A DNA stretch of 32,000 bases. Source: Candidatus Electrothrix yaqonensis. GTDB lineage: Bacteria > Desulfobacterota > Desulfobulbia > Desulfobulbales > Desulfobulbaceae. A model generated the notes under the pieces. That model made no database searches, had not been told where the DNA came from, and saw only the letters and a list, made by a program, of their open reading frames with translations. The stretch spans positions 2,160,001 through 2,192,000 of the forward strand of contig CP178758.1 in NCBI GenBank assembly GCA_047651235.1. Direction: 5' to 3'. The position numbers were made by a program, and so were the translations under genes. This document shows positions 4,843 through 29,142 of the stretch, one piece after another (position 1 is the stretch's first letter; each line of letters begins with the position of its first letter).

Positions 4843-4844
4843 TT

Positions 4845-6026: not shown

Positions 6027-6037
6027 TCCGGTGACTG

Positions 6038-12807: not shown

Positions 12808-14736
12808 TTATTTGTAACTCCGTTGCGAAGGCGTAACCGCCTCGAACTGGAGCGGCTCCTGATGCAGGAAAGGCCGCTGCCCCACCCCTCTATGCTCCCA
12901 GACAGTCACATGGGAGTAATTTGCATCATCCCGTTTAGCCTCATTCTCCTCGGTCTGGCTTTCCTCGCGCAGATGGCAGCCACAGGACTCTCTGCGCTCC
13001 AGGGCATCAAGCACCATGACCTCAGCGAATTCCAGAAAATCCGCCACCCGTCCGGCTCTCTCCAGAGACTGGTTCAGATCCTGGCCGCTGCCGGGCACGT
13101 ACACGTTGGCGTAAAATTCCTCCCGGATCGCCGGAATCTCGGCCAGGGCTTTAGTCAGTCCGGCCTGATTGCGGGCCATACCGCAGTTGTCCCAGAGCAG
13201 GGCACCGAGTTTACGGTGATAATAATCCACCGGCTGCGTGCCCGCTTTTTTCCAGTCCCGATTACGTAAGAGCCGGGCAATTCGGCCTGCAACCTCCTCT
13301 TCCGCCTCGGCAAAAGCCGGGGCCTCCACAGCAGGACGGTCAAATCCGGCCTGGGCCAGATAATTGCCCATTGTCGCGGGCAGGATGAAATACCCGTCCG
13401 CCAGTCCCTGCATGAGTGCGCTGGCACCGAGCCGGTTGGCCCCGTGATCGGAGAAATTGGCCTCCCCGATGACAAACAGGCCGTCCAGAGTGGACTGGAG
13501 CTGATAGTCTACCCACAAGCCGCCCATGGTGTAATGCACTGCCGGGTAGATCATCATGGGTTCCCTGGCCGGATCAGCAGCAGTGATCTTTTCATACATC
13601 TGGAAGAGGTTGCCGTATTTCTGGAGAATGACTGCCAGCCCGTCCCGCGCAATGGCCTCGGAAAAATCCAGATATACAGCCTGCCCGGTCTTGCCCACAC
13701 CCAAGCCCTGATCGCAGACCTCTTTGGCATTGCGGGAGGCCACGTCACGGGGCACCAGATTGCCGAAACCGGGGTATTTGCGCTCCAGATAGTAATCCCG
13801 GTCCGCTTCCGGGATGTCCGCCGGGCCGCGATGGTCATCTTTGTTTTTCGGCACCCAGACCCGCCCGTCATTACGCAGGCTTTCGCTCATCAGGGTCAGT
13901 TTGGATTGGTAGTCGCCATGCACCGGAATGCAGGTCGGATGAATCTGGACAAAACAGGGATTGGCAAACCCGGCACCCCGCTTATGCGCCCGCCAGGCCG
14001 CCGTGACATTGCAGGCCATTGCGTTGGTGGACAGATAGAAGACATTGCCGTAGCCGCCCGTGGCCAGCACCACTGCGTTGGCTGCGTACCGCTCCAGCTG
14101 GCCGGTGATGAGGTTACGGACAATGATCCCCTGTGCCTTGCCGTTGATGACCACCAGATCCATCATCTCCCGGCGCGGGTAGATGGTGACTTTTCCGGCC
14201 GCGACCTGACGCATCAGGGAGGAATAGGCGCCCAGGAGCAGCTGCTGGCCGGTCTGACCACGAGCATAAAAGGTGCGCGAAACCTGCGCTCCGCCAAAGG
14301 AGCGGTTGGCCAAAGTGCCGCCGTATTCGCGGGCAAAGGGTACGCCCTGAGCAACGCAGTGGTCAATGATCGCGTTGGAAACCTGGGCCAGACGAAAGAC
14401 ATTGGCCTCGCGGGAACGGAAATCCCCGCCCTTGATGGTGTCGTAGAAGAGGCGGAAGATGGAATCGCCGTCGTTCTGGTAATTCTTGGCCGCGTTGATG
14501 CCGCCCTGAGCAGCAATGGAATGGGCCCGACGCGGGCTGTCCTGAATACAGAAGGACTTGACGTTGTAGCCCAGTTCAGCCAGTGAAGCCGCTGCCGAGG
14601 CCCCGGCCAAGCCGGTACCCACCACAATGATTTCGTACTTGCGCCGGTTGGCAGGGCTGACCAGCTTATTGCTGAAGCGGCAGTTATCCCATTTTTCGTG
14701 CAGCGGGCCGGGGGGGATTTTTGGGTCGAGGAACAT
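12808..14736 (-). CDS. sdhA: Succinate dehydrogenase / fumarate reductase flavoprotein subunit (type-B, Bacillus/Wolinella-like)
   Basis: FAD fold [22 protein letters not shown], the covalent-FAD His region [73 protein letters not shown] and [11 protein letters not shown]. It is collinear with B. subtilis SdhA as remembered. Confidence 0.92.
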
Positions 14737-14876: not shown

Positions 14877-16187
14877 TCACCAGCTACCTGATGCGCCTCC
14901 GCCACCACTGGACCCACCACTGGACCCACCGCTGGAACCGCCGCTGGAACCGCCGGAGCCGGTTCTTGAACTGCGATTGACACTCGCTATTGTTTGATAG
15001 TACTGATGCTGACAAGTACTGTAAGTACATTTCATGCGGGCCAGTCCGTTGCGGTTGATTGTTGGAGGTCTAACAACTTTTTCTTCCACAGTTACGTATC
15101 TGCATTTCGTACATTTATAATATTTCTTTAACGTCGTCCTCAGCATAGCACGTTTTTTATAATAGCCGCATGACTTGCACTGCCATACGTCATACTCCAC
15201 AGAACCAAGTTCTTCCTCTTTTTTTTCGCCGTCATTCAGCAGACTGCTTTTTTCATCTTTTTTTAGCAGTAGAGTTAATCTGTTATTACATTTCTTGCAC
15301 CGACGGGCACGGAATCTTATATACTGAAAAATATTTCCAGCTACTGGAAAAAGTGCCAACCAACTACAAATAAATAACGTTACAGCTGCATCGCCATGAG
15401 CGATAAATACCATAAAACTTGTGTAAACTTTTGAGTTTGAAAATTGTGCCTGCAAGTTCACAAAACATAAAAAGACCAAGAAGAAAAACGTTGAACCTGT
15501 TGTGATGGCTAAAATATTAGGATATTGTTTTATGCAACGAGTAGCTACCAGAACCGTCAGCAGGAACAGCCCTAAATATAACGGAATCAGATGAACAAAC
15601 TTAGAAATCTGCACTTTTCTCTCCAATGTCCGCAGAAACTTCGGAGCAGAATCTTTCACTCCTTTTGTCTGCTCCGGGTTCTTTTGCAGAATTTCGGCAA
15701 TTCGTTCCGCCCCGCTGATGATCCCCTCGTCAAAATTTCCGGCCTTAAAGGCGGGGATTATATTCTTCGCGATAATATTGCCGCAAAGCCCGTCTGTCAG
15801 CAGCGGTTCCAGCCCGTAGCCGACTTCAATCCGTACCCTACGCTCATTAGGCGCAATCAGAAACAGCACCCCGTTGTTGGTGTCGGCCCGCCCTATGCCC
15901 CATTCGTTGAACAGATTATTGGCGTATTCCTCTATGGTTTCTCCGTGCAGAGAAGAAACGGTCACGATATCCAGTTCCGCCGTGGTCGCCTCAGCGACTC
16001 CGGCAGTTAGCTGCTCCAGTTGCGCTTCCTGCTCCGGTGAAAGCAGAGAGGCAAAATCATAGACACGTTTCCCGGATACGGGCTGGGGATATGCGGAACA
16101 GGCGGGAGCAACCCAGCAAATCAGAGCTGCAAGAAAAACAAGACATGCCAGCCAAGTTGATTGTATCAATAGATGGTACTTTCTCAT
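14877..16187 (-). CDS. TPM-domain (YgcG-like) protein with signal peptide, multi-TM region, cytoplasmic 4xCxxC zinc-ribbon region and Gly/Ser tail
   Basis: TPM pattern: VYDFASLLSPEQEAQLEQL...ELDIVTVSSLHGETIEEYANNLFNEWGIGRADTNNGVLFLIAPNERRVRIEVGYGLEPLLTD. The C-terminal part has ~4 TM helices, then CKKC...CKSC...CTKC...C..C, and ends (GGSS)4GGGGASGSW. Start set at ATG 16187 (MRKYHLL..., preceded by GGAGGG). The upstream 186 nt of the track ORF cover the sdhA relic. Confidence 0.75.
   Translation of the reverse strand: MRKYHLLIQSTWLACLVFLAALICWVAPACSAYPQPVSGKRVYDFASLLSPEQEAQLEQLTAGVAEATTAELDIVTVSSLHGETIEEYANNLFNEWGIGRADTNNGVLFLIAPNERRVRIEVGYGLEPLLTDGLCGNIIAKNIIPAFKAGNFDEGIISGAERIAEILQKNPEQTKGVKDSAPKFLRTLERKVQISKFVHLIPLYLGLFLLTVLVATRCIKQYPNILAITTGSTFFFLVFLCFVNLQAQFSNSKVYTSFMVFIAHGDAAVTLFICSWLALFPVAGNIFQYIRFRARRCKKCNNRLTLLLKKDEKSSLLNDGEKKEEELGSVEYDVWQCKSCGYYKKRAMLRTTLKKYYKCTKCRYVTVEEKVVRPPTINRNGLARMKCTYSTCQHQYYQTIASVNRSSRTGSGGSSGGSSGGSSGGSSGGGGASGSW
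14903..14961 (-). repeat. 12-nt tandem repeat encoding (GGSS)n
   Basis: ccaccactggac x2, then ccaccgctggaa, ccgccgctggaa and ccgccggagcc. This is in-frame coding microsatellite-like repetition at the 3' end of the TPM gene. Confidence 0.8.
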
Positions 16188-16372
16188 TCTGCCCTCCATA
16201 AAAATATTCAGAAAGAATTTAAGTTGCGGGATATTGATCGTACTTAATATCTTGTTGTGAAATATTTTTCTTCGGTCAGCAAGTGGGAATTCTGTTTCGC
16301 AAAAATGAAAGTTAGTACATAGGGAGGAGGGAAAGCCTTTTGGGACGGCCCTGAAATAGGGAGGATCCATCA

Positions 16373-16442
16373 CCTATTCCTGAGGCGGCAGCTGTCCCAT
16401 TTTTCTGCAGCGGTCCGGGGGGATTTTGGGATTCACATAACA
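16373..16442 (-). pseudogene. Relic of an sdhA/frdA 5' end (start codon plus ~23 codons, frameshifted)
   Basis: 16373-16442 aligns with 14665-14736, the first 72 nt of the intact sdhA. The shared core is ctgaRgcggcagYtRtcccattttt(c)gtgcagcggKccggggg(g)gatttttggg...acat. There are two 1-nt indels and roughly 80% identity by hand. Confidence 0.7.
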
Positions 16443-16446
16443 TCTG

Positions 16447-16512
16447 CTCTGTGAATTTTTAGTTACTTGAAAAGCACTTACTCTGTGAATTTAGTTACTT
16501 GAAAAGCACTTA
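16447..16512. repeat. Tandem duplication (34 + 32 nt) spanning the 3' end of the 73-aa gene
   Basis: ctctgtgaatttttagttacttgaaaagcactta (16447-16480) is followed directly by ctctgtgaatttagttacttgaaaagcactta (16481-16512). The second copy contains the last codons and stop of the 16491..16712 gene. Confidence 0.85.
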
Positions 16513-16712
16513 ATATGATATTCGTAAATTTTCTCCTTCTCCTGAAGAGTTAAGTCGTTAACCCACTTTAACTTTTCACTGAAATTCATTTTTCTTGCCT
16601 CTCTCAAAGGACAATTTGGATTTTTTGGATTTTTCCGCCCAACAGGGCATGCTTCTGCCAAAGAGATAAGCATAGCATTATATTCATCTGCAGAATAGCT
16701 ATTTCTTGTCAT
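16491..16712 (-). CDS. Small Cys-containing hypothetical protein (73 aa)
   Basis: AT-rich ORF with CPVGRKNPKNPNCPLR and a C-terminal HIKC. I recognise no family. It is transcribed divergently from the kinase operon. Confidence 0.45.
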   Translation of the reverse strand: MTRNSYSADEYNAMLISLAEACPVGRKNPKNPNCPLREARKMNFSEKLKWVNDLTLQEKEKIYEYHIKCFSSN

Positions 16713-17111
16713 TTTACCGCAATATCAGTTGATTAGCTGCGTAAATCCTTGCAGGCGACGCCAGTCACAGAGCGTTTAAATTCTCATTCCTAAGCAGGCA
16801 AACATGGAAAACCGAATAGTTACTCTGTCAATATCAACCTTTAACTTTTTCTAATTAAAAAGTAAACAGGAAACACCAGTTGACAGGATGGAATGTACCC
16901 ATCCCGGTATCACATTCCAGAATCAAACCGTGCAGCGATACGGGTTACAGAGCGGGGTTGAAGGTACGAATCCCAATTGCCTGTTTTCTCATCTGTCCTC
17001 TGCCCTCTTCAAACCGAACACTTGATTCAGACAGGGTATTTTTTCCGACACAGACTCTGTTACGCGCTGATACTGATTTGAAAATCACGCACCGCCATCA
17101 ACCTCTTGCAT

Positions 17112-17140
17112 CTTGCATTTGCAGGCACGGAACTGTATTC
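17112..17140 (+). promoter_or_regulatory. Sigma70-like promoter candidate for the kinase/ATPase operon (TTGCAT-N17-TATTCT)
   Basis: TTGCAT at 17112-17117, a 17-nt spacer, then TATTCT at 17135-17140. This is ~100 nt upstream of ATG 17247. Confidence 0.3.
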
Positions 17141-17246
17141 TAAAAAATACGCAGCAGGAAAGGAACAGTATGCGTTCTGTATTTTTTATGCTACCCTGCT
17201 TCCGGCGGCAGGAGGAAGGAGACCCAACAGGAGGAGGCGATACAGC

Positions 17247-18749
17247 ATGGCTCAGGTACGCAAGGCCAAAAACAGGAACGGAACCTCTGTCGAATATGTT
17301 GATGAGATCATCGGTTCCGGCGGGATGAAGGATGTTTATTTCACCCCGGACCGCAAGAATGTTGTTGCTTTCTTCCGGGACAAGCAGGATCGTCAGGCTC
17401 TGGAACGCCTTGAAATGATCACCGGCACCTATCGTGAAAAAATTTTCAATCAGGACGGCGGTGCGTACTGGGAGAACCTGTTCCGCTGGCCCACCGAGCT
17501 GGTTGAAGATGAGGATGGCAAAGTGGGTGTGATTGTGCCAACCTATCAGGATCATTTCTTTTTTACCACCGGTTCCATTAATAACGATTTTCTGCAGATT
17601 AAAGGCAGAGAAAAAGAGGGCAAATGGTTTGCTTCGCCAACCAACCGAAACCAGTATCTTGACCCTGCGGAACGCGGCACCTGGCTGGACTACCTGCGTA
17701 TCTCCATTCTGCTCAGCCGGGCGGTGCGGCGGATGCACGCGGCAGGGCTGGCCCATTCCGACCTCTCGTATAAAAATGTCCTGATCGATCCGGTCGGCGG
17801 CAATGCCTGTATTATTGACATTGACGGCCTAGTGGTGCCGGGGAAATTTCCGCCTGATGTGGTGGGCACGCCTGATTTTATTGCTCCGGAAGTCATTGCC
17901 ACGGCCCATCTGGACAGGCAGGATCCGCAGCGGAAACTGCCGTCCATCTATACCGACCGCCATGCCCTGGCCGTGCTGATCTACATGTACCTCCTTCTGC
18001 GCCATCCCTTACGCGGGGATAAGGTGCATGATCTTGACGAGCCGCAGCGCGATGAAGACCTGTCCATGGGCGAGCGCGCCTTATTTGTTGAGCATCCCAC
18101 GGATCAGTCCAACCGGATCAAAACAGAGTATCTCAGGCCCCTGGAAAAACCGTGGAAAGATACAGCCGCCCTGCCCTGTCAGATCGTCGGCCCGTATCTG
18201 GAAAAATTGTTTCACCAGGCCTTTATTGACGGGCTGCACTGTCCGGAAAAACGGCCCACAGCCGATGAATGGGAACAGGCTCTGGTCAGGAGCGTGGATC
18301 TGCTTCAGCCCTGCGTCAATCCCGAATGCGCCCAGAAATGGTATGTGTTCGATAATACAAAATCCCCGAAATGTCCCTTCTGCGGCACCAGATACACGGG
18401 CAAGCTGCCGGTGCTGAATCTGTACTCCAGCCGGCATGGCGGCAAGTTTCTGCCGGATAATCACCGCCTGATGGTCTATACCGGTCAGTCGCTTTTTCGG
18501 TGGCATGTGAACCGGACAGTGGTGCCCAACGAACGCCTGACTCCAAAAGACCGGCAGCGGGTCGGGTATTTCATCTTTCACAACAACAACTGGCTCTTGG
18601 TCAATGAACGGATGCCCGGCTTAATTGACCTGAGTACAAAGCAGCCGGTTCCGGCGGGCGGTAAGATTGTGCTTAAAGAGGGCCGCCAGATTTTGTTTTC
18701 CAAAGAAAACGGCGGTCGACTGGCTCTGGTCCAGCTTGTGGATGCGTAA
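17247..18749 (+). CDS. Atypical Ser/Thr protein kinase with C-terminal zinc ribbon and FHA-like beta-sandwich
   Basis: Kinase motifs: IGSGGMKDVY (Gly loop), HSDLSYKNVLID (catalytic loop), IIDIDG (DFG-equivalent) and GTPDFIAPEV (APE). The Zn ribbon CVNPEC...CPFC follows, then a tail (GQSLFRWHV...FHNNNWLLVNERMPGLIDLSTKQPVPAGGKIVLKEGRQILF) with an FHA-like pattern. Start set at ATG 17247, after GGAGGAGG. Confidence 0.8.
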   Translation: MAQVRKAKNRNGTSVEYVDEIIGSGGMKDVYFTPDRKNVVAFFRDKQDRQALERLEMITGTYREKIFNQDGGAYWENLFRWPTELVEDEDGKVGVIVPTYQDHFFFTTGSINNDFLQIKGREKEGKWFASPTNRNQYLDPAERGTWLDYLRISILLSRAVRRMHAAGLAHSDLSYKNVLIDPVGGNACIIDIDGLVVPGKFPPDVVGTPDFIAPEVIATAHLDRQDPQRKLPSIYTDRHALAVLIYMYLLLRHPLRGDKVHDLDEPQRDEDLSMGERALFVEHPTDQSNRIKTEYLRPLEKPWKDTAALPCQIVGPYLEKLFHQAFIDGLHCPEKRPTADEWEQALVRSVDLLQPCVNPECAQKWYVFDNTKSPKCPFCGTRYTGKLPVLNLYSSRHGGKFLPDNHRLMVYTGQSLFRWHVNRTVVPNERLTPKDRQRVGYFIFHNNNWLLVNERMPGLIDLSTKQPVPAGGKIVLKEGRQILFSKENGGRLALVQLVDA

Positions 18750-18787
18750 TTCTGAACCATATTCAACCTCAAGGAGAATAAACTGAT

Positions 18788-21466
18788 ATGTATCATTTTA
18801 AAGGGCTTACCCGGCAGGAAATCGAGGCCTCGCGTATAAAACACGGTTCAAACCAGCTCAGCGCGGTTGAAACAGAGACCTTCTGGGACAAACTGCTGGA
18901 CAATTTTAAAGATCCCATGATCATCATCCTGACCATTGCCCTGGTTATCGTCACGATACTGGCCGCATTCGGGCAGACAGAATGGTATGAAGGAGTGGGT
19001 ATTGCCTTTGCTGTTGTCTTGGCCACCTTGGTAGCCACGGCATCAGAATTTAAAAACGAGCAGACCTTTCAAAAGCTCCAGGAGGAAGCCTCCAAAATAC
19101 AGATCAATGTCTTCCGGGAGGACAGCGTTACGGTTGTCGGCATTGATGACGTCGTTGTCGGTGATGTTATCCTGCTCCAGCCGGGCGATAAAATTCCGGC
19201 GGACGGCAGGATTCTTGAGGGAAAAGTGGCTGTGAGCCAGGCTGCGCTGACCGGTGAACCTGAACCCCGGGGCAAAACTCCGGGAGAGGCGGATGTCTCA
19301 GATCTGGAAGATGCCCATGCCGTGTTCAGAGGAACCGTGATCGAGGACGGCGAGGCCGTTATGGAAGTGCTGCAGGTTGGTGATAACACCCATCTGGGCA
19401 GACTGGCTGAAGAACTGGAAACCGATGAACGTATGGGACCGCTCCGGGTCAAGCTGGCGCGGCTGGCGCACGGGATTGCCGTGTTCGGTTACATTACCGC
19501 CCCGCTGATCGCTCTGGCCTTCCTGTTCAAGGCGGTCTATCTGGACAACAGCGGCGACATGTCAGCGATAGCAGCGTATGCAGCCGACTGGACGCATCTA
19601 CTCTCTGATATTGTCAAAGCCCTGATTCTTGCTGTCATCATTATTGTGGTGGCGGTTCCTGAAGGACTGCCCATGATGATCGCCATTGTCTTGGCTCAGA
19701 ACATGCGCAAGCTGCTCAGGTCCAATGTCCTGGTCCGGCAACTGCTGGGGGTGGAGACCTCAGGCAGCCTGAACCTACTTTTTACTGATAAAACCGGAAC
19801 GGTTACCAAAGGCCTGTTGGAAACCGTGGGCTTTCTGACTGTAGCAGATACGGACATGAAGGATGCGGTAAGACAGTATGACAGTTTTGAAAAATTGCCG
19901 GAACAGAATGCTAGGCTGCTGGATCTGTCGCTGCGGGAAAATACCTCCAGTGTGGTGAACTGCAAGGCAACTACAGAGTCCGAACGGATTGTGGGCGGCA
20001 ACAGTACGGACCGGGCTTTGCTGAAATTTGTCCATGCAGAGAGCACAGAATGTCAGTATGAGGAGAAAACCACGGAAAAAGTGGATGAACTGCTCTTTAA
20101 TTCGACCAGAAAATTTTCCGCAGTCCGCATCAGAAAAGAAGACGGCCAGGAAATGACCCTGATCAAGGGAGCGCCGGAAAAAATCTTTGCGCAATGCGGC
20201 TCTTTTTATGATAGTCAGGGCAATGTTGCTCCCCTTCCGGCAGAGCGAAAAACAGCCATTGTCCAGACCATTGACAGCAGAACCGATGAGGGATTCCGCC
20301 TGATCGCGGTTGCGGTGACCGAGGAACCAATCCCGGCAAATCTGGATGCGATGACAGGTCAGCTGACCCTGCTGGGATTTGCCATGATCCGCGATGATCT
20401 ACGGCCGGAAGCAGCTGACACAGTGAAAGAACTCCACAGTGCCGGGATCCAGGTGGTCATGATCACCGGTGACCGTAAAGGCACGGCTCAGGCCATTGCC
20501 AAAGAGGCAGGCCTAATCACCTCTCCGGACGATGTTGTCCTGACCTCGGATGAAATGGCCGACCTCTCTGATGATGCCTTAAAGAAGATTATCCCGAATC
20601 TGAAAGTTGTCTCCAGATGCCTTCCTTCGGATAAATCCCGCCTCGTCAAAGTAACCCAGGAAATGGGCCTGGTGGTCGGCATGACCGGAGACGGGGTCAA
20701 TGACAGTCCGGCCCTGAGCAGTGCGGATATCGGCTTCGGCCTGGGAAGCGGCACTGAAGTGGCCAAAGAGGCCTCGGATATCGTGGTGCTTGACGACAAT
20801 ATCCAGTCCATTGCTAATGCGGTTCATTACGGCCGGACGATCTACCATTCCATCCAGAAATTTATCACCTTTCAGCTTACCGTCAATGTGGCGGCAATTT
20901 CCATCGCCTTCCTCGGCCCCTTCTTAGGTTTTGAGCTGCCCCTGACCATGATCCAGCTGCTCTGGGTCAACCTGATTATGGATACCTTGGCTGCTCTGGC
21001 CTTTTCCGGTGAGCCGCCTCTGCCGGAATACATGGAGGAAAAACCGAAAGAGCGGGAAGAACATATCATCACCTCAAGGATGTGGCAGTCCATTTTGGGC
21101 AACGGCTTTTTCATGACCGCAGTCTGTGTCCTGTTTTTGAAAGCATCTTTTGTTCACAACCTGTTTGCCAGCGAGGAGGTCTTTATGACCGCCTTTTTCG
21201 GAATATTTGTCTTCCTGAACAACTTCAACAAGTTTAATGTCCGGGTGGAGGACTGGAAGCTGTTTGATCATCTTTCCGCCAACAAAGGATTTTTACAGGT
21301 GGTCGGAATGATTTTTCTGATCCAGATAGTTATCACCTATATCGGCGGCGAGGTGTTCCGGACTGTTGCTTTGGGAGTACAGGACTGGTTCTGGGTTATT
21401 GTGTTTTCCATTGTTATTGTTCCCTTTGATCTTGCAAGAAAAAGTCTTTTCAACAAGAATAAGTAA
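18788..21466 (+). CDS. Ca2+-translocating P-type ATPase (P2B/PMCA-LMCA1-like, single-site type)
   Basis: N-terminal GLTRQEIEASRIKHGSNQL, TGEPEP, TM4 VPEGLPMM, the phosphorylation site DKTGTVT, MITGD, TGDGVNDSPAL, TM5 FQLTVNVAAISIAF (Ala where SERCA has Glu771) and TM6 LWVNLIMDTLAAL. Confidence 0.88.
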   Translation: MYHFKGLTRQEIEASRIKHGSNQLSAVETETFWDKLLDNFKDPMIIILTIALVIVTILAAFGQTEWYEGVGIAFAVVLATLVATASEFKNEQTFQKLQEEASKIQINVFREDSVTVVGIDDVVVGDVILLQPGDKIPADGRILEGKVAVSQAALTGEPEPRGKTPGEADVSDLEDAHAVFRGTVIEDGEAVMEVLQVGDNTHLGRLAEELETDERMGPLRVKLARLAHGIAVFGYITAPLIALAFLFKAVYLDNSGDMSAIAAYAADWTHLLSDIVKALILAVIIIVVAVPEGLPMMIAIVLAQNMRKLLRSNVLVRQLLGVETSGSLNLLFTDKTGTVTKGLLETVGFLTVADTDMKDAVRQYDSFEKLPEQNARLLDLSLRENTSSVVNCKATTESERIVGGNSTDRALLKFVHAESTECQYEEKTTEKVDELLFNSTRKFSAVRIRKEDGQEMTLIKGAPEKIFAQCGSFYDSQGNVAPLPAERKTAIVQTIDSRTDEGFRLIAVAVTEEPIPANLDAMTGQLTLLGFAMIRDDLRPEAADTVKELHSAGIQVVMITGDRKGTAQAIAKEAGLITSPDDVVLTSDEMADLSDDALKKIIPNLKVVSRCLPSDKSRLVKVTQEMGLVVGMTGDGVNDSPALSSADIGFGLGSGTEVAKEASDIVVLDDNIQSIANAVHYGRTIYHSIQKFITFQLTVNVAAISIAFLGPFLGFELPLTMIQLLWVNLIMDTLAALAFSGEPPLPEYMEEKPKEREEHIITSRMWQSILGNGFFMTAVCVLFLKASFVHNLFASEEVFMTAFFGIFVFLNNFNKFNVRVEDWKLFDHLSANKGFLQVVGMIFLIQIVITYIGGEVFRTVALGVQDWFWVIVFSIVIVPFDLARKSLFNKNK

Positions 21467-21578: not shown

Positions 21579-22592
21579 ATGATAAACCATGCGCGATTTT
21601 TTTTTATACAGCGAGATAACAATCCTTTACGAAAAGAGGCATTTACCGCTTCTTTCCTCGGCAAACTGCATCCGGCCCGGCTCCCGCATCTGCAGCGCGG
21701 GAGCTGCTGTCTGGCCCGGTTACTCCGGGCATCCCTTGCCGAACTCCCGGTTTCCGGTAATGTCCTGCTCATCGGTCTGACAGAATCCGGCATTGTTCCT
21801 TCTTTTCTGATGTATCTGGAAGCCTGTCAATTAAACATTCCATGCCGATGGATCTGTTCAACCCGCCGGCTAGGTGAATCCGGGGTCGTTTTTGAGGAAA
21901 CACACTCGCACAGCCCGAATCATACCCTACCGATACCGGAGGCCAGTTTCTCGGAAGTCTGGATTGTCGAAGATGAAATCACCACAGGCCGGACAATACA
22001 GAATCTCCTGCACCAGCTCCAGGATCATGTTGCCGCCCAGATCTTCCGCATATTTTCTCTGGTGGATTTCCGGTCTGCACAGCAGCAGCAAGGTTTTTTA
22101 TCGTTGTTGGATGATCAGACAACAACATATCTTTTTCATACGGCCGTCCATTTGTCCGATATGCAGGGCGACAGCGCTGACTATCCGGATGACTTGGCAG
22201 AAAAAAGCACATATTCATCCGGATATCCTGAATATCTGCTCCCGAAGTTAGCCCCGTCATGCGGTCTGCGATGGAATCAGATACCGCCGGAATCTGCCGA
22301 TGCAACTCTGTTTGTTCTTGGGGAAGCAGTGCATACAGCAGTGCTGCTGGTGGCTGCCGGGAAATTCCGGGATTTTCAGCACATCACCCTCAGTCCGTGG
22401 CTGGTGGATGCATGCAGTATCAGGAGCAGAATAGACCTGCCCGGAAAGCATTATCTCTATAATACAACGAAGCAGGAACTCCGGTCGCCTGTCTTTCTCC
22501 TGCACGATCCGGCAGATCAGGCGATGAGCAGCAAAGTACACAGGGAGCTGGAAGGACAGGGCATACCTGTTCAGCAACTGCACCTTTTATAA
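21579..22592 (+). CDS. Ter-associated phosphoribosyltransferase (PRTase_2 + TRSP-type architecture)
   Basis: PRPP-binding loop VWIVEDEITTGRTIQNLL. Upstream are FLGKLHPARLP and LLIGLTESGIVPS. The C-terminal ~150 aa extension is consistent with the TRSP domain seen C-terminal to this PRTase class in Ter loci. The first in-frame start is 21579, and no SD is evident. Confidence 0.65.
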   Translation: MINHARFFFIQRDNNPLRKEAFTASFLGKLHPARLPHLQRGSCCLARLLRASLAELPVSGNVLLIGLTESGIVPSFLMYLEACQLNIPCRWICSTRRLGESGVVFEETHSHSPNHTLPIPEASFSEVWIVEDEITTGRTIQNLLHQLQDHVAAQIFRIFSLVDFRSAQQQQGFLSLLDDQTTTYLFHTAVHLSDMQGDSADYPDDLAEKSTYSSGYPEYLLPKLAPSCGLRWNQIPPESADATLFVLGEAVHTAVLLVAAGKFRDFQHITLSPWLVDACSIRSRIDLPGKHYLYNTTKQELRSPVFLLHDPADQAMSSKVHRELEGQGIPVQQLHLL

Positions 22593-22620: not shown

Positions 22621-23622
22621 ATGCAGCAGGCAATCCTTCCGGATGCGGAAAACAATTTCTGGCAACAGTATATTTATGTCGATCTGCGGGAAGAGGTGCA
22701 TCCTTTTAACGAAATGCACCGCTTCCGCAGATTGGAACAGGCCTACACCGGCGAAAACACCTTCTGGTCCATTCCTTCTCCGGAACCGGATCTGGATGAT
22801 ACCTTCTGGCAGCATGTGCATGACCAGCTGGACAATAAACAGATCCGGAGGGCAGCACAGCAGCTGGCTGCCGTCATTCTACAGTGGGAAGCGGATCCGG
22901 AGCAGCTTATTTTTGTCGCCATTCTCAGGGCCGGGGTGCCTATTGCAAAGTGGCTCTGTCAGATGCTGCCCGGAGCAGTGAGTGCCGCCATATCGCTTTT
23001 TGTCGGCATCGGCATTGACCGGCAGGCCCTGGCCCGGCTGCAGGCAGATTTCCCGGACCGGAAGATTGTTTTTGTTGACGGTTGGACAGGGCGCGGCGGG
23101 GTTGCCAGAGAACTTGCCCGGCTTGATAAAGGGCCTTTGGCGGTGCTCAATGATCCCTGGGGCTGGGCAGATTTTTCCGGCATTCAGGAGGATATATTCT
23201 GCCCTTCCGCCTGTTTCACCGGCCTGACAACGCTTGGTTTTTCCAGAACCTTTTTTGTGGATGAGCAGCATTTCTTTGCTGCGTACAGATTTCCGGAATC
23301 CCACACCCGCAAAGATCTGGTTGATGCTTGGTGCACAGCCGGACCTGCACAGCCGACCCGCCCTGCTGCGGAAAAATGCAGACATTTTCATCAGGAAACC
23401 GAGCTGCGTATCCACAGCAATGAAGTCTGCCGGGCCTTGATTAATGCTGCGCCCAAGACCCTCTTTTTTACGGATGACGCCCGATATGCTGAGGAGCACT
23501 TCCCTCTGCTGCTGCTTCTGGCGGAACAGCGGGGCGTACCGGTGGAGTATAATCAGACATTTTTAAATAAATATCGTACCCGCGCTGCCTGTTCTCTGCG
23601 TATTGAACAGCTGAAAGCCTAA
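22621..23622 (+). CDS. Ter-associated phosphoribosyltransferase, PRTase_1 type (family often mis-annotated as cysteine protease StiP)
   Basis: LIFVAILRAGVPIAKWL and the PRPP-loop-like IVFVDGWTGRGGVAREL. Size (~330 aa) and its position next to the other PRTase match the Ter biosynthetic module as I remember it. Confidence 0.6.
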   Translation: MQQAILPDAENNFWQQYIYVDLREEVHPFNEMHRFRRLEQAYTGENTFWSIPSPEPDLDDTFWQHVHDQLDNKQIRRAAQQLAAVILQWEADPEQLIFVAILRAGVPIAKWLCQMLPGAVSAAISLFVGIGIDRQALARLQADFPDRKIVFVDGWTGRGGVARELARLDKGPLAVLNDPWGWADFSGIQEDIFCPSACFTGLTTLGFSRTFFVDEQHFFAAYRFPESHTRKDLVDAWCTAGPAQPTRPAAEKCRHFHQETELRIHSNEVCRALINAAPKTLFFTDDARYAEEHFPLLLLLAEQRGVPVEYNQTFLNKYRTRAACSLRIEQLKA

Positions 23623-23672: not shown

Positions 23673-24428
23673 ATGGCAGTATGTGTTTTTTGTAAACAGG
23701 AAGAAGGAAATCCGTCCTGTGCGTTCTGTAAAGGTAAAGGAACTCCCGCGACAAAGAAGAGAGCTTCTTCTGCTGAAAAAACGAATACACCCATCCCTAA
23801 ACAGACTGGCCAGATATCTCTCAAGAAAGGCGGTCGCCCTGTTCTTATTCAAAAAACACCTAAAATTACAGCAACTGTCTCCTGGAAAAGCGGCACAGAT
23901 TATGACATATATGCTCTGGTTATGCTTAAAAACGGGGAAGAAATTGCAGTTGCAACATTTGGTGCCATTTTAAAAGAGAAAGGATTGTTTGGGAAAAAAC
24001 ATAGGATTCCTCCCCTTATGAACTTTGGAAACGGTGCGGTAAGTCATCGTGGTGACGTCGTAGGCCGTGGCTCAGAAAAAGGCTTTGAGATTATTGATAT
24101 TCGACTAAATGACGATATTGTTGCAGTTGTTCCAGTGGCGTATTCTGCACAGTCAAACGGGACAGGGTCCTTCTACCGTTACCGTGTTACATTGGAAATT
24201 AACAACAATCAAGGAACGACCGTCACTCTTCCGGCTGAAACTGCGAACAATAATGATCTTATTTATACTTGTGTACCGGGGATTATCTATAATTATCCGA
24301 ACGGCATTCAAATTGAAGCACTTGAACTCTACAGTAAACCAGGTTCTGAGAATCGACCAAAACTCCAGCTTGACAACAACAAAGTTACTGTGCTGATGGA
24401 TATGGGAGCAAAAAATGAATATAAATGA
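23673..24428 (+). CDS. Divergent TerD-domain protein with N-terminal CxxC-x8-CxxCxGxG zinc knuckle
   Basis: N-terminus MAVCVFCKQEEGNPSCAFCKGKG, then a basic linker, then a TerD-like core (ISLKKGGRPVLI...ATVSWKSGTDYDIYALVMLKNG...HRGDVVGRGSEKGFEIIDIRL...YRYRVTL). A strong SD (AAGGAGG) is present. The gene looks AT-richer than its neighbours by eye. Confidence 0.65.
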   Translation: MAVCVFCKQEEGNPSCAFCKGKGTPATKKRASSAEKTNTPIPKQTGQISLKKGGRPVLIQKTPKITATVSWKSGTDYDIYALVMLKNGEEIAVATFGAILKEKGLFGKKHRIPPLMNFGNGAVSHRGDVVGRGSEKGFEIIDIRLNDDIVAVVPVAYSAQSNGTGSFYRYRVTLEINNNQGTTVTLPAETANNNDLIYTCVPGIIYNYPNGIQIEALELYSKPGSENRPKLQLDNNKVTVLMDMGAKNEYK

Positions 24429-24458: not shown

Positions 24459-25205
24459 ATGAGAAAAAACACACTGCATTCGCAGAATAAAGCCGTTGCC
24501 GTTGATCTTGACGGTACCTTGGTGCATACGGTGCCGGGGGAATATACCATACCGGGGCGCTCCGGAAACTGTTATCTGTCGCATCGGGCAGTTGAGTTGT
24601 TAGCCGAAATCAGCCGCACCCTGCCGACCTTTATTACAACCGGCAGGAATGCGGCGAGCGTTCAGAAGATAATCCGGCATCTTGAAAAGGTACGTTTTGT
24701 GGGCTTTATCCTGGAAAATGGTTTTGTGGTCAAAAAGGACCTCCGCAGCCCTGATCCTCGAAAAGAGAAGTGGAAATTTGCAGACAAGGTACCGCCGGAC
24801 TGGGAACCCATTCCGGGGTATGAGCGTTCTGCCGGGTTTATCCTGCCCAGAGGACAGAAAAATCCGGCAGAGCTTGTCCGGAATCTATTAAAAGAGACTC
24901 GGGAGCAGGGGTATATCCATTTAAACCAACCGAAAATTTTTGTCTATCCTCAGGAGCCGGATAAAATGCAGGGGCTTGCCGAATTCAATGTCCGGCCGCA
25001 CATAGCACTGGGGAACGATATCAACGATACCCAGCTGATGCAGGCAAGTACCTATCCGGTTACTTTACAGGCTGCACATTCTTCCATCAAAAAAATAGCA
25101 GAAAAAAAGGACGGATACTGTTCACCCTTTGCCGACCATGCCGCAGCAGAGGATATGCTGCGCTGGGCCTGCACCAAGTTATCTGCCCTGTCTTCCTCGT
25201 CCTGA
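24459..25205 (+). CDS. HAD-superfamily phosphatase (Cof/IIB-like)
   Basis: Motif I VAVDLDGTLV, motif II ITTGRN, motif IV LGNDINDTQLM. Confidence 0.75.
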   Translation: MRKNTLHSQNKAVAVDLDGTLVHTVPGEYTIPGRSGNCYLSHRAVELLAEISRTLPTFITTGRNAASVQKIIRHLEKVRFVGFILENGFVVKKDLRSPDPRKEKWKFADKVPPDWEPIPGYERSAGFILPRGQKNPAELVRNLLKETREQGYIHLNQPKIFVYPQEPDKMQGLAEFNVRPHIALGNDINDTQLMQASTYPVTLQAAHSSIKKIAEKKDGYCSPFADHAAAEDMLRWACTKLSALSSSS

Positions 25206-25220
25206 CCTTCCCCTGATCTC

Positions 25221-26525
25221 ATGCGGGATAATGAACATATCACGAGTAATATAAAAGAGTTTCCCGATTCATTCTATCTGCCGAAATATGCAGATGATAT
25301 GTTGTCCCGATACGGAAAACATATTGACATTCTCCTGTCCGAAGGCATCCGCCCCCTTCCGGAACGGCTAACCGCTTTCTTTGCCGTCTCGCCTCAGGGA
25401 AGGTATACAAAAAAAGGAATGGATCAGGCCTTTGTTGCTGCGGAAGGGTTCTCGGGCGTCAACCCCGGTGAACAGGCGGATTATGACCAGGGGGTTCCTC
25501 GGCTGACCGAAGTGGATGTCAGCAGGGCCTTGCAGAAAAATCCGGCCAACAGGCAATGGCTTGTCCTGAGCCTGGAGCGCACAGCGCAGAGATACGGCCT
25601 TGCTCTGTCCGGTGATCTCATACAGAGTAGCTCGCAGTTACTTGATTTTTTGTATCATGAAATTTCGTTCTGGGAGGCAGACAGCTTTCCGTTGGATGCC
25701 ATGATGGACCTGACCAATCAATACCACTGGACCTTCCGATCAGATGCCTGGTCGTTGCGGGAACAGCTGCGGCGGGAGGCCCTGATTATCCATGCTGCCT
25801 GGAAAGAACTGCTCAGACTGTCCCGTCAGCATCCCCTCTTCCTCATCCTTAACCAGGCGACCCCCACGGATTATTTCTGCAGTGCATTACCGCAGGGTGC
25901 ATCCCTGTTTGCACAAGGGACTGATCAGAGTGAGCAGCAGATCCTTGTCTCTGCGGACATCAAGATATCCTCTTCCGAGCACCGGGATACTCTCCAGAAA
26001 ACCTCTGAAGGCGATGCGCTTGAGCAGGCAGTGGAGATCGCCTGTACCGTACAGCGGGTTCCTGTTGTATGTGATCTGTCACGCCGTCGTTTTCCGCGTT
26101 CTTTCCTGCGAATAGCCCGATTTGCCCAGTGCAGAGGCTGGGGGATCCAGCCGCTGGGCAAGCTGGCAGACCCTGCAGCAACACAGCTGCCGCAGGCAAA
26201 ATCCTGTTCCGGCTTTCCGGTCCTGTCCGGTCATCCTGAGCTGCTCCTGTTTGACCCGTGGCCTATCTCGGATACGCAGATCGTGCCGGAACTGCCTCCG
26301 GATATTTCGGATAGGTTTGTGACTGCTCCGCAGACAAAACCCTGGCAGGATGATCGGATCGGGGCAAGAAATGAGCTGGAAATGGATGAACACGGACAGT
26401 ACCGTGCCGGAGCGCAAAGCTGGGTACTGCCTGTTCCGGGCGGCTGGATGCGGGTGCATGATCTGTTCAAAAGTCGCATGGCCCGGTTCCTGCGCGGGAT
26501 GGATTCGTCGCTGTATATTATCTAG
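25221..26525 (+). CDS. Hypothetical protein, 434 aa, no recognisable domain
   Basis: A long ORF tightly packed between the two HAD genes (15-nt and 14-nt gaps). Its codon usage resembles that of its neighbours. I see no motif I can assign. Confidence 0.6.
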   Translation: MRDNEHITSNIKEFPDSFYLPKYADDMLSRYGKHIDILLSEGIRPLPERLTAFFAVSPQGRYTKKGMDQAFVAAEGFSGVNPGEQADYDQGVPRLTEVDVSRALQKNPANRQWLVLSLERTAQRYGLALSGDLIQSSSQLLDFLYHEISFWEADSFPLDAMMDLTNQYHWTFRSDAWSLREQLRREALIIHAAWKELLRLSRQHPLFLILNQATPTDYFCSALPQGASLFAQGTDQSEQQILVSADIKISSSEHRDTLQKTSEGDALEQAVEIACTVQRVPVVCDLSRRRFPRSFLRIARFAQCRGWGIQPLGKLADPAATQLPQAKSCSGFPVLSGHPELLLFDPWPISDTQIVPELPPDISDRFVTAPQTKPWQDDRIGARNELEMDEHGQYRAGAQSWVLPVPGGWMRVHDLFKSRMARFLRGMDSSLYII

Positions 26526-26539
26526 AAATCTGAACACTT

Positions 26540-28525
26540 ATGCAACAAAAAACAGTCTTTGTTTTTGATCTTGATGGGACCATGAATCATGCCGCGCCTG
26601 TGCCCGGCGGCTTACCCATTCGGGGCCGAACAACCGATTCGTTTCTGGATGGGCGGGTTATTGAGCTGCTACTCGAACTTGCAGAGGTGACCGATCTGTA
26701 TGTTGCGACCGGCAGGTCACGGACAACCGTCGAGGATTTCAGGAGTCATTTTTCTGCTGCCGGTATCCGGATTTCCGGCTGGATACTGGAGCACGGCACC
26801 CAGATTAAGGGCCACCCAGCCTGGACGGAAAAAGTCCTGACCGGGATCGATCTTGTTGCGGTTCATGCCCGGGCCGGAGAAATTATTCAGAAGAACGGTT
26901 ATACCATTGATACGGAATGCTACCGGGAGGCGCATCAGTCCATTCTGCTGTACTCCGGCAGGGACCGGTGCGAGGCCGAAGCACTGCTGTCCCGGCTTGC
27001 CGGTGTACTGAACAACCGCTTCAGAACCATTGTCGGCTCCCGGAAGATTGTCCTTATTCCCAAAGGTGGCGATAAATATGCTGCTTTCCAAGCCGTGTTC
27101 GGAAAAACGCATACTCTCTGCTGTGCAGCCGGTGATATGCCAGATGACCTGACCCTGTTGCGCCACGCAGCTTTTCCTCTGACCCTGCGGAGCGCTTCCC
27201 CCCTTGTGCAGAGATATGTGGAGGAGCGCGGCGGTTTTGTCGCTGCCGAGGGCGGGCATGAGGGGACGGCAGAAGTTCTCCGGGCGGCCCTGGCATATTT
27301 CCGGGGTAAACATTCCGGGCTGCCTGTGCCTGGTCCGCGCCTGCCTGTGGAAGAGATGGAATCCTTCCGGCCTTCCCGATGCAGTTTTCTGGACCGGCTG
27401 TTCCGCGATGTTCGGTTTCCTGAACAAGAACCGGATATTGATCGGATCAGGCAGGCAGCCTCTCAGCTTGATGGAGGCAGAAATACTGTTGTTGAAGTAC
27501 GGATGCGGGACTGGGGCGGAGAAGCGAAATCTTTGCGCAGCCTGCTCAACGCAATGGTTCCGCTTATTCCGTATGCGCACTGGCGGCTTGTCTTTCGGCA
27601 GGAACGTCTTGGTGCAGACAATCTGCAGGATTTTCAGGTCATCACGGCTCGACTGGCCGATTTCTCTTTGCTGCCCGACGGGACGCACCGTTTTTCTGCG
27701 CCCGGTGTGCCGAACTCGCCACAAGAAGAAAGGGAATCCGCAATAACCTTATTGCTCTATGATCATCCGGAGGATATGGGGCCTTGGTATGATCATGCTG
27801 TACCCCGGCTGATAACCCGCCATCCGCAGGATACTACAGCTTGGTTTATCAATCCGATGTTTCTGAAGATTTCCGGCATCAGCACTGGACTGACCAGTAA
27901 GAATCGTGCTGCCCGGCAGATACACTATGCAGGCCCCAAGGTCATGATGGCGGCAAATATCGTCGATGACACGGATATCCGGATTGCCGTGCAGGGATTC
28001 GAGCAGTTATCCCCTGCTCTGGACGCGCTTATTCTTGCACCCCGTGTGGTAACCAATCCGCAGCGCAATAAAAAAATCAGAGAAGCTGCAGCCTCTGTCA
28101 GCAAAGAGATATCCTTTCTTTCCCGGCTCTCCCCGACAGACCGCCCCCGTATCCTCCTGGTCGATACCTACGGTGACTTAGAAAATTTGTATACCCATTG
28201 CTGCATAACCTATCTGGGTGGCGGCTTTGACCCGAGAAAACGAGGTTTTGATCCTATGGAATCTCTGGCTGCCAAGGTACCGGTTATTTTGGGGCCGCTC
28301 TATGATTTCAACCGGATAGCAGTAGACTCGTTCAGGCAGACCGGGTGGGTAAATATCCTTACGCAGGAAGAAACCGGTGTAGAGGATTTTGTCGGCATCG
28401 CTAAAAATTTACTGAAGCGTAAACCGGATGGCCGGACATTACACAATGTTTTGCAAATCCGAAGATTGGATACCCTGCGTATTGCAGAGGAACTGCTGCA
28501 GGATTTTGCAAAAACAGGGGGATGA
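26540..28525 (+). CDS. Fusion protein: N-terminal HAD phosphatase + C-terminal GT-B glycosyltransferase resembling Kdo transferase (WaaA/KdtA, GT30)
   Basis: HAD motifs VFVFDLDGTMNH, VATGRS and AAGDMPDDLTLL. The C-terminal RILLVDTYGDLENLYTHCCITYLGGGFDPRKRGFDPMESLAAKVPVILGPLYDFNRIA aligns by eye with the WaaA pattern GDSMGEL..LY..AD.AFVGGSLV..GGHNPLE.AA...PV..GP....F..I. Confidence 0.65.
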   Translation: MQQKTVFVFDLDGTMNHAAPVPGGLPIRGRTTDSFLDGRVIELLLELAEVTDLYVATGRSRTTVEDFRSHFSAAGIRISGWILEHGTQIKGHPAWTEKVLTGIDLVAVHARAGEIIQKNGYTIDTECYREAHQSILLYSGRDRCEAEALLSRLAGVLNNRFRTIVGSRKIVLIPKGGDKYAAFQAVFGKTHTLCCAAGDMPDDLTLLRHAAFPLTLRSASPLVQRYVEERGGFVAAEGGHEGTAEVLRAALAYFRGKHSGLPVPGPRLPVEEMESFRPSRCSFLDRLFRDVRFPEQEPDIDRIRQAASQLDGGRNTVVEVRMRDWGGEAKSLRSLLNAMVPLIPYAHWRLVFRQERLGADNLQDFQVITARLADFSLLPDGTHRFSAPGVPNSPQEERESAITLLLYDHPEDMGPWYDHAVPRLITRHPQDTTAWFINPMFLKISGISTGLTSKNRAARQIHYAGPKVMMAANIVDDTDIRIAVQGFEQLSPALDALILAPRVVTNPQRNKKIREAAASVSKEISFLSRLSPTDRPRILLVDTYGDLENLYTHCCITYLGGGFDPRKRGFDPMESLAAKVPVILGPLYDFNRIAVDSFRQTGWVNILTQEETGVEDFVGIAKNLLKRKPDGRTLHNVLQIRRLDTLRIAEELLQDFAKTGG

Positions 28526-28560: not shown

Positions 28561-29142
28561 TCAGGCCGCACTTACGCCGTATTTTGCGCAGACCTGCCCA
28601 AGCCCTTCCTCTGATCCCTGCCCTACAGCCTTAAACTTCCATTCGCCGTTTTTAAGATACACTTCGCCAAATATCACTGCGGTCTCCTTAAAAAAATCTT
28701 CAGTCAGGTCGTAACGCGTAATTTCCACATCATCGACTGCGTTGACAATCCGAATAAAGGCATTCTCCACCATCCCGAAGTTCTGACCGCGTTTGTCTGC
28801 TTCGTGAATTGTCACCACAAATACGGCTTTAACCAGTTCCGGGGGCATATCTTTCAGCGACATCATGATGACCTCGTCATCCCCTTCACCTTCGCCGGTC
28901 AGGTTATCCCCGGTATGGACAACAGCACCATTGGCGCCCTGCAGGTTGCCGTAGAAAATAAAATCCTGGTCACCCGTCACTTTGCCGTCCGCACCGCAAA
29001 GAAATATCGAGGCATCAAGATCAAACTCAGCCCCGCCCAGAGCTTGGGCATCCCAGCCGCAGCCGACCTTGATGGCTTCCAGTCCCGGAGCTTCTTTGCT
29101 CAAAGAAATATTGGCGCCTTTTTTTAATGATAATACAGCCAT
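28561..29142 (-). CDS. terD: TerD-family tellurite/stress resistance protein (canonical, Ca2+-binding motifs intact)
   Basis: MAVLSLKKGANISLSKE, FDLDASIFLCGADGKV, GDNLTGEGEGDDEVI, ENAFIRIVN and EWKFKAVGQG. It is collinear with TerD/TerE/TerZ. Confidence 0.92.
   Translation of the reverse strand: MAVLSLKKGANISLSKEAPGLEAIKVGCGWDAQALGGAEFDLDASIFLCGADGKVTGDQDFIFYGNLQGANGAVVHTGDNLTGEGEGDDEVIMMSLKDMPPELVKAVFVVTIHEADKRGQNFGMVENAFIRIVNAVDDVEITRYDLTEDFFKETAVIFGEVYLKNGEWKFKAVGQGSEEGLGQVCAKYGVSAA

Follow-up and report, generated by a model that had tools for sequence, protein, structure and literature searches.

Results

The kinase and its architecture

The DNA analyzed here, referred to as the window, is a stretch of 32,000 nucleotides (nt) from Candidatus Electrothrix yaqonensis (GenBank assembly GCA_047651235.1, contig CP178758.1, positions 2,160,001 to 2,192,000). 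Between positions 17247 and 29891 of the window, eight co-oriented genes are followed by two convergent ones. The first two of the eight, which are our main subject, encode a Ser/Thr kinase of the family found in the TerY-P phosphorylation triads of tellurite resistance (ter) loci and a Ca2+-exporting P-type ATPase. The features of this pair are listed below, with lengths in amino acids (aa).

16870 to 17246, + strand: leader/promoter region of the kinase gene, conserved in related Electrothrix genomes (alignment with L085 and L001, blastn)
17247 to 18749, + strand: Ser/Thr kinase gene, 500 aa (open reading frame (ORF) and family/fold matches)
17247 to 18281, + strand: Hanks-type Ser/Thr kinase domain, orthologue of the TerY-P triad kinase (Pfam Pkinase, AlphaFold (AF2) model with Foldseek)
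18312 to 18383, + strand: four-Cys zinc ribbon, C356, C361, C376, and C379, Cx4C...CxxC (alignment of 23 orthologues)
18399 to 18746, + strand: predicted C-terminal FHA-like β-sandwich (predicted model, structure search)
18750 to 18787, + strand: intergenic spacer of 38 nt with AGGAG ribosome-binding site (sequence inspection)
18788 to 21466, + strand: PMCA-type (P2B) Ca2+-exporting P-type ATPase, 892 aa (TIGR01517, PDB relatives)
19250 to 19261, + strand: pump motif TGEP
19655 to 19672, + strand: pump motif VPEGLP
19787 to 19801, + strand: pump motif DKTGT
20687 to 20704, + strand: pump motif GDGVND
20870 to 20896, + strand: pump transmembrane helix 5 (TM5), FQLTVNVAA, residues 695 to 703
20969 to 20986, + strand: pump transmembrane helix 6 (TM6), NLIMDT

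The kinase gene begins with an ATG that is preceded by GGAGGAGG. The initial annotation of this sequence stated that the catalytic motifs are intact, and all of them were located: the catalytic loop HSDLSYKN at residues 170–177 (17754–17777), the DFG-like motif DIDG at residues 191–194 (17817–17828), and APE at residues 213–215 (17883–17891). None of the three varies in an alignment of 23 orthologues from the Desulfobacterota, Gamma- and Betaproteobacteria, and Bacteroidota, at 66–85% identity. The protein scores 34.1 bits against Pfam Pkinase, above the cut-off of 31.7, and the Foldseek matches of its AF2 model are Hanks kinases. The N-lobe is strongly divergent, with a weak Pfam match to Kdo/WaaP at 19.6 bits. 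The usual β3 Lys position is occupied by Arg44 (residues 23–44 correspond to 17313–17378), and Lys is found there in 2 of the 23 orthologues. Lys28 in the glycine-rich loop is invariant in the same alignment, which is reminiscent of the WNK kinases.

The segment that follows the kinase domain had been described as a CxxC...CxxC ribbon. A zinc ribbon is indeed present, and its four Cys are invariant in the 23 orthologues, but the spacing of the first pair is Cx4C and not CxxC (C356-x4-C361...C376-x2-C379, CVNPEC...CPFC). The tail beyond the ribbon had been called FHA-like. The last 161 residues of the kinase, zinc ribbon included, were modeled with a pLDDT score of 80.5, and the last 115 residues form a β-sandwich in the predicted model. 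All of the top 50 PDB matches of this C-terminal model are FHA domains, with E values from 1.7e-3 to 4e-2, probabilities of 0.94–1.0, and a target template-modeling score of at most 0.70. The sequence methods gave a different answer. There was no Pfam FHA signal at E ≤ 10 in 16 orthologue C-terminal fragments, which showed zinc-ribbon-like noise instead, and hhalign of the kinase C-terminus with a GarA FHA sequence gave a probability of 5% in a different register. Arg-407, Ser-415, His-420, and Asn-453 are invariant and are candidates for the FHA signature (GR...SxxH...NG). Since no sequence method detects FHA, the term FHA-like is a statement about the fold, made from prediction; in that sense, the C-terminus of the kinase has a predicted FHA-like fold, and the description stands for the fold but not at the sequence level.

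The leader of about 370 nt upstream of the kinase has a mean column identity of 78% with its counterparts in L085 and L001. An Rfam search of the whole window, leader included, gave no family match at the gathering score, and the consensus fold of the leader, calculated from three sequences only, has an unfavorable covariation term. In L001, this leader is located between the PP2C gene and the kinase gene.

The triad and its division

In a TerY-P triad, as described in PMC11090510, a vWA protein resembling TerY is combined with a PP2C phosphatase and with a Ser/Thr kinase that carries a fused zinc ribbon. The assignment of the window kinase to such triads is borne out by its comparison with the kinase of the ter island of the Klebsiella plasmid pKpvST383L, to which it is 64% identical over 499 aa (100% coverage). 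The gene order in that island is TerW-vWA-TerX-vWA-vWA-PP2C-kinase, beside terZA and genes for ATP-grasp, phosphoribosyltransferase (PRTase), and HpcH proteins. In a neighbor-joining tree, the window kinase is nested among triad-linked kinases. The family is large, with more than 4,000 relatives, each about 500 aa long, found in a protein search and with one carried by each of 2,345 plasmid records. We surveyed the neighborhoods of the best 80 of at least 594 genome loci. PP2C is directly 5′ of the kinase orthologue in nearly all of these 80 loci, and vWA genes together with PP2C precede the kinase in almost every locus that has upstream sequence.

The window departs from this pattern. Neither vWA nor PP2C was found in Pfam scans of the large ORFs of the window or by tblastn of the window with Klebsiella queries. 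The window also gave no vWA or PP2C match in tblastn with queries from cable bacteria, even though these queries recognize one another at 44–88% identity, and upstream of the kinase not even a remnant was detected at E ≤ 1e-3. In the 10 kb past the TerB gene, read from a Logan contig matching the window at 100% identity, vWA and PP2C are likewise absent; this part encodes a histidine kinase and otherwise unrelated proteins. However, a 666-aa PP2C (P0244), found with the PP2C of the closest relative as query, is most likely from the same genome. Furthermore, the sequencing sample in which the window is present at 100% identity contains a short contig with a vWA/TerY_C-PP2C pair followed by 86 nt without a kinase start. 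Thus, the claim that the kinase is without its vWA and PP2C partners is correct for the locus but not for the genome, in which a TerY-type vWA-PP2C pair most likely sits elsewhere. Because this pair exists at another locus, the triad is split and not lost, and the kinase can still act with its partners in trans. In Ca. Electronema halotolerans, too, the chromosome with the isolated kinase-pump pair has a PP2C elsewhere.

The ancestral state is represented by Ca. Electronema aureum, with the order TerD-TerD-vWA-AIM24-vWA-vWA-PP2C-kinase-pump. The triad of the window has been cut exactly at the PP2C-kinase junction, with the kinase having kept or gained its own leader of about 370 nt. A split triad means that the kinase can be kept and used apart from PP2C and TerY. 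An AIM24-family gene lies between the TerY vWA genes of cable-bacterial triads, at 5680–6480 in L082 and at 4269–5036 in L001.

The calcium pump

The initial annotation placed a PMCA-like pump 38 nt after the kinase, and both parts of this statement were confirmed. The protein scores 610 bits against TIGR01517 (PMCA-type; cut-off 507), its nearest solved structures are ACA8, PMCA1, and PMCA2, and it has 10 predicted membrane helices. The catalytic motifs TGE, DKTGT, TGD, and GDGxND and the ion-site residues of transmembrane helix 4 (TM4) and TM6 are all present. The kinase stop codon ends at 18749, AGGAG is located 9 nt 5′ of the pump ATG at 18788, and no terminator-like site was found within the 38-nt spacer. 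Given the short gap, the AGGAG site, and the lack of a terminator-like site, the kinase and the pump are likely co-transcribed. A spacing of 37–38 nt is also found in Ca. Electronema aureum (L082, L083).

The ion-binding pattern of the pump is of the site-II-only kind, with PEGL in TM4, NVAA in TM5, and NLIMD in TM6. The TM5 sequence FQLTVNVAA is read directly, and we take Ala-702 to be at the position of SERCA Glu-771, from the register of SERCA NVGE against PMCA NVVA. The single Ca2+ site proposed on this basis is the norm of the PMCA-type family and is common to all kinase-linked and unlinked pump homologues, so it is uninformative about this particular system. The core model covers residues 5–880 of 892, and there is no calmodulin-binding autoinhibitory extension. 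Bacterial PMCA-type pumps usually lack this extension. Any regulation of the pump must come from elsewhere.

The closest pump homologues outside the cable bacteria, which are 59–69% identical, come from Desulfonema, the Desulfococcaceae, and a metagenome-assembled genome of the Flavobacteriales. They are found in housekeeping contexts, often in the order PgpA-pump-M24 peptidase, with neither a kinase nor a ter gene. The kinase-linked pumps of cable bacteria are nested inside these unlinked housekeeping pumps in a distance tree, the linked pumps of the Bacteroidota form a distant clade, and the pump of L010 stands apart; the linked pumps represent at least three unrelated lineages in this tree.

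A Thr or Ser at residue 586 in the P-domain (20543–20545) is kept in 16 of the 16 kinase-linked pumps examined, and this residue is Glu, Lys, Arg, Gln, or Asn in the closest unlinked pumps. When the linked pumps were compared with four unlinked ones, only Thr/Ser-586 and Ile-760 differed. We rejected Thr-586 as a signature of kinase-linked pumps, since about 40 of 120 wider homologues also have Thr/Ser-586 as their consensus; as a phosphorylation site, it is a weak candidate.

Recurrence of calcium exporters behind the kinase

Exporters were counted in the 64 surveyed loci with at least 3 kb of downstream sequence. A PMCA-type pump is present in 12 of the 64 and a CaCA antiporter in 2, giving 14 loci in total, and in all 14 the exporter lies on the strand of the kinase, no more than 2.6 kb downstream. 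The exporter-linked kinases fall in four separate clades of the kinase tree. The kinase-pump pairing is conserved in relatives. Beyond the cable group, a pump follows the kinase in ten loci of the Bacteroidota, one of the Acidobacteriota, and one of the Desulfuromonadaceae. All seven pumps that were scanned against NCBIfam pass the TIGR01517 cut-off, with 537–699 bits, and PMCA-type motifs are present in every surveyed pump whose sequence reaches TM5/TM6. This recurrence in the neighborhood survey indicates that the adjacency is more than chance.

The kinase and the pump are adjacent in five flanking contexts (the window, L085, L091, L082, and L002), and the antiporter occupies a comparable place in other relatives:

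Ca. Electronema aureum (L082): full triad followed by kinase-pump; spacer as in the window
L091: PP2C, kinase, and pump, preceded by Gabija-like OLD/UvrD genes and without TerD, TerB, or PRTase genes nearby
Ca. Electronema halotolerans (L002): kinase-pump among histidine-biosynthesis, glycosyltransferase, and arginyl-tRNA synthetase genes; no ter genes within 10 kb
L085: kinase-pump-PgpA-PRTase_2; no PP2C upstream
Ca. Electrothrix aarhusensis (L001), Desulfamplus (L004), and L084: CaCA-family Na+/Ca2+-type antiporter between kinase and PRTase_2

L085, with a pump, and L001, where a CaCA antiporter occupies the same position, are sister lineages in the kinase tree. Local pumps were thus recruited on three or more occasions, and an antiporter family unrelated to them on at least one. 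Such convergent recruitment is the strongest argument for a functional link.

In L091, a Gabija-like gene pair at 2680–6594, for a UvrD helicase and an ATPase/TOPRIM protein of the OLD family, is found directly upstream of the PP2C-kinase-pump genes, with a DNA methylase gene before the pair; this module is thus in a defense-island context. PgpA (phosphatidylglycerophosphatase A) accompanies the pump in Desulfobacterales housekeeping loci; in the ter clusters of cable bacteria, it is also found with the kinase on one side and the exporter or PRTase genes on the other (observed in L088, L089, L085, L001, L087, and L004).

Other genes of the window

Downstream of the pump are the remaining genes of the cluster:

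21579 to 22592, + strand: PRTase_2 phosphoribosyltransferase, first gene of the Ter-associated biosynthetic module (PF15609, E 2e-18)
22621 to 23622, + strand: StiP-family PRTase-like protein (PF11202, E 3e-23; matches the hypothetical protein K_hyp2 of the Klebsiella ter island)
23673 to 24428, + strand: 251-aa protein with N-terminal CxxC...CxxCxGxG zinc finger and divergent TerD-like domain (BLASTP)
24459 to 25205, + strand: HAD-IIB phosphatase (PF08282, TIGR00099)
25221 to 26525, + strand: 434-aa protein, no family match (Pfam, NCBIfam, and PADLOC all negative)
26540 to 28525, + strand: HAD-IIB protein with C-terminal Kdo-transferase-like (glycosyltransferase) fusion (TIGR01484, residues 7–207; PRK05749, residues 495–612)
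28561 to 29142, − strand: canonical Ca2+-binding TerD (PF02342, 252 bits), motif GDNLTGEGEGDDE at 28873–28911
29199 to 29891, − strand: TerB-domain protein with C-terminal CxxCxGxG zinc finger (PF05099, 37 bits)

The TerD protein aligns end to end with the Ca2+-binding TerD of Klebsiella (2KXT/2KXV) at E 6e-72, and GDNxTGEGxGDDE is kept, so that the motif which had been described as intact is verified by alignment to known structures. The PRTase_2 gene is syntenic in L001, L004, L084, and L085. A tblastn search of the window for ATP-grasp, HpcH (Klebsiella queries), and TerC gave no matches. The biosynthetic module is a variant, with the PRTase pair and HAD proteins and without ATP-grasp/HpcH.

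The 251-aa protein has no Pfam match; it matches the window TerD by BLASTP at E 8e-4 over the N-terminal strands and lacks the Ca2+ motif. It is absent from the syntenic module of L084, where the counterparts of the 434-aa protein and of the HAD fusion are conserved, with 429 and 674 aa, respectively. The DnaJ-like CxxC...CxxCxGxG finger occurs twice in the window, N-terminally in the 251-aa protein and C-terminally in TerB. Beside TerB, a sensor histidine kinase gene of 717 aa (CBM9-like, HAMP, HisKA; 30171–32000, + strand) runs off the end of the window.

Upstream of the kinase are an AT-rich spacer of 870 nt and then a divergent, low-GC gene for a TPM-domain protein, and the 5′ half of the window consists of housekeeping genes. 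The TPM gene (14877–16373; GC 0.42–0.44) is bracketed by a 58-nt direct repeat, 86% identical, at 14667–14724 and 16375–16430, the second copy of which duplicates the start of a flavoprotein gene (12808–14736). The TPM region resembles a cassette that was inserted a short way upstream of the kinase leader. The TPM protein has several CxxC ribbons and a Gly/Ser-rich tail. It was considered as a replacement phosphatase and rejected, being absent from all relatives and located in the low-GC insert. A tandem 28-nt repeat at 16458–16517 (93% identical, 32-nt spacing) overlaps the end of an ORF at 16491–16712 (− strand), which encodes a Cys-containing protein of 73 aa with no family match.

PADLOC gave only weak matches of the kinase to other kinase models (PD-T4-6, MkoA, and mad6) and none for the pump or the ter genes, and this result therefore supports no defense-system call. 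The TerY-P kinase family is also nearly absent from the phage collection, with one partial match at 30%.

Discussion

Comparison with known systems

All parts of the locus are of known kinds. We found no description in the searchable literature, a body that excludes the founding 2012 paper (Anantharaman et al.), of a recurrent coupling between a TerY-P kinase and a Ca2+ exporter, nor of a triad split that leaves a kinase-pump bicistron. In comparison with the TerY-P triad (Anantharaman, Iyer & Aravind 2012, as presented in PMC11090510), the window has a kinase of the same family and architecture with the same neighbors as in ter islands, namely TerD, TerB, and the PRTase/HAD module. It differs in that vWA and PP2C lie at a separate locus, that the kinase is followed by a Ca2+ pump, and that the domain past the zinc ribbon is given an FHA-like predicted fold. 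The stand-alone TerY-P-like antiphage system (Gao et al. 2020, cited in PMC11090510) is a vWA/PP2C/kinase defense module whose kinase has an OB fold, whereas the window kinase has a zinc ribbon; a likeness to it is seen in L091, where the relatives of the window genes adjoin Gabija-like defense genes.

The pump shares the catalytic motifs and the site-II-only pattern of PMCA-type pumps, including plant ACA8, human PMCA1/2, and the bacterial members of TIGR01517, and differs from the eukaryotic ones in lacking the calmodulin-binding autoinhibitory tail. An operon-partner kinase as regulator would be a new arrangement for a bacterial pump. With the classical terZABCDEF operon (Pan et al. 2011; 2KXT/2KXV), the window has in common an identical Ca2+ motif of TerD and the presence of TerB, but it has no genes for TerC, TerA, TerZ, ATP-grasp, or HpcH, and its module is a variant with the 434-aa protein and the HAD-glycosyltransferase fusion. 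The pump may fill the membrane-transport role of the absent TerC.

The role of calcium

What might be the function of a Ca2+ pump in such a cluster? The protection that ter genes provide against tellurite, colicins, and phages has been unexplained for decades, and the binding of Ca2+ by TerD is among the few biochemical clues. The initial annotation suggested that Ca2+ is a signal or cofactor of the system. The relevance of Ca2+ is supported by the recurrent linkage to exporters, but the idea is not new, since Ca2+ signaling in Ter systems had already been proposed from the structure of TerD (Pan 2011) and from Streptomyces genetics (Daigle 2015), as cited in PMC8123226.

We favor, with about an even chance of its being right, the explanation that the locus is a rearranged Ter/TerY-P stress and defense cluster of a cable bacterium, in which Ca2+ export is a recurrent accessory of TerY-P/Ter clusters. 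The kinase would head a probable operon that continues with the Ca2+ exporter, PRTase_2, StiP, the TerD-like protein, HAD, the 434-aa protein, and the HAD-glycosyltransferase. In the order of events that we propose, Ca2+ would enter the cell after an insult to the envelope or membrane and would be bound by TerD and probably by a metal site of TerY. The kinase, if active, would form a switch with PP2C that reports the Ca2+ state, and its FHA-like domain could dock on a phospho-threonine partner. The co-expressed pump, presumed from its family to be specific for Ca2+ and to transport it outward, would extrude one Ca2+ per ATP and thus limit or reset the signal.

Several observations weigh against this explanation. 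The evidence is comparative and is read from sequences. The FHA assignment comes from a predicted structure. The pump is an ordinary pump of its lineage and not a dedicated Ter component, it lacks any regulatory extension, and the search for residues that set kinase-linked pumps apart found none. The surveyed loci are phylogenetically clustered, and about 78% of them have no Ca2+ exporter nearby; since most TerY-P kinases have none, Ca2+ export is an accessory and not a core part. In the Bacteroidota, TerB-like, HAD, and PRTase genes separate the pump from the kinase, which it follows at a distance of 0.4–2.3 kb, and because these genes intervene, the linkage there may be to the whole ter cluster and not to the kinase.

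A more specific proposal is that TerY-P kinases directly switch Ca2+ efflux by phosphorylating the PMCA-type pump or the CaCA antiporter. TerD and TerY would then sense cytoplasmic Ca2+, and the FHA-like domain would dock on the phosphorylated transporter. We consider such direct control unlikely. The initial annotation spoke of a pump wired to a kinase; what is seen is adjacency, and we can only conjecture that the kinase acts on the pump. If direct control is true, it would be a bacterial Ca2+ second-messenger circuit in stress and phage defense, and the cable-bacterial kinase-pump bicistron would be its minimal form.

Alternative explanations

The position of the exporter could have a simpler reason, if it is the membrane cation-transport part of the Ter cluster, a stand-in for TerC, and is found after the kinase since the kinase ends the TerY-P block. 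This agrees with the window, which has TerD and TerB and no TerC, with the Bacteroidota, where the pump follows the TerB-like, HAD, and PRTase genes and not the kinase itself, and with L084, L004, and L001, in which the CaCA gene separates the kinase from the PRTase module. TerC occurs in 8 of the surveyed loci, none of which is among the 14 that have a pump or CaCA antiporter, but this is not significant, because about 1.6 overlaps are expected by chance. Furthermore, L002 retains the kinase-pump pair with no ter gene within 10 kb, and L091 retains PP2C-kinase-pump with no TerD, TerB, or PRTase genes nearby. A role as TerC substitute is thus conceivable, though rather unlikely. It is less probable still that the adjacency is a by-product of rearrangement, in which a housekeeping pump landed beside the kinase in an ancestor of the cable bacteria with no functional link. 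The region has certainly been rearranged, as seen from the low-GC TPM gene with its 58-nt repeats just upstream; the nearest non-cable pumps are the unlinked housekeeping genes beside PgpA and M24 peptidase described above, and the close relatives L001 and L087 have no pump after the kinase. An accident of this kind does not readily account for the independent linkage in the Bacteroidota, Acidobacteriota, and Desulfuromonadaceae with pumps of unrelated lineages, for the substitution of a non-homologous Ca2+ antiporter at the same site, or for the persistence of the pair while both flanks vary, and a rough estimate of the chance of one such adjacency is <1e-3.

Finally, the kinase might act not on proteins but on a small molecule, such as a sugar- or nucleoside-like intermediate of the PRTase/HAD pathway. 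Some orthologues carry the NCBI label "lipopolysaccharide kinase InaA family," the very divergent N-lobe has the weak Kdo/WaaP match and an Arg at the usual β3 Lys position, and in the window, L084, and L085 the gene is directly before biosynthetic genes. However, the Pkinase score is above the cut-off and APE is intact, the gene is almost everywhere coupled with one for a PP2C protein phosphatase, and the predicted FHA-like domain is typical of phosphoprotein signaling. We therefore regard a small-molecule kinase as very improbable.

Significance

The independent recruitment of three kinds of Ca2+ exporter to one and the same place behind the TerY-P kinase is comparative evidence for a Ca2+ flux in the working cycle of Ter systems, and it gives the old Ca2+ hypothesis a concrete genetic handle. 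Cable bacteria raise the Ca2+ concentration of sediment pore water by dissolving carbonates, and we speculate that a regulated Ca2+ exporter could matter to them ecologically.

Phages may also be involved. Bacteroides jumbo phages have several terD genes, and they also encode a Ca2+ P-type ATPase that is highly expressed and related to host pumps (PMC12880540). Because Bacteroidota hosts link a PMCA-type pump to ter/TerY-P clusters, it is possible that these phage genes mimic or counter the host ter/TerY-P-pump system. The phage matches that we obtained with a ter-linked pump of the Bacteroidota are generic P-type ATPases.

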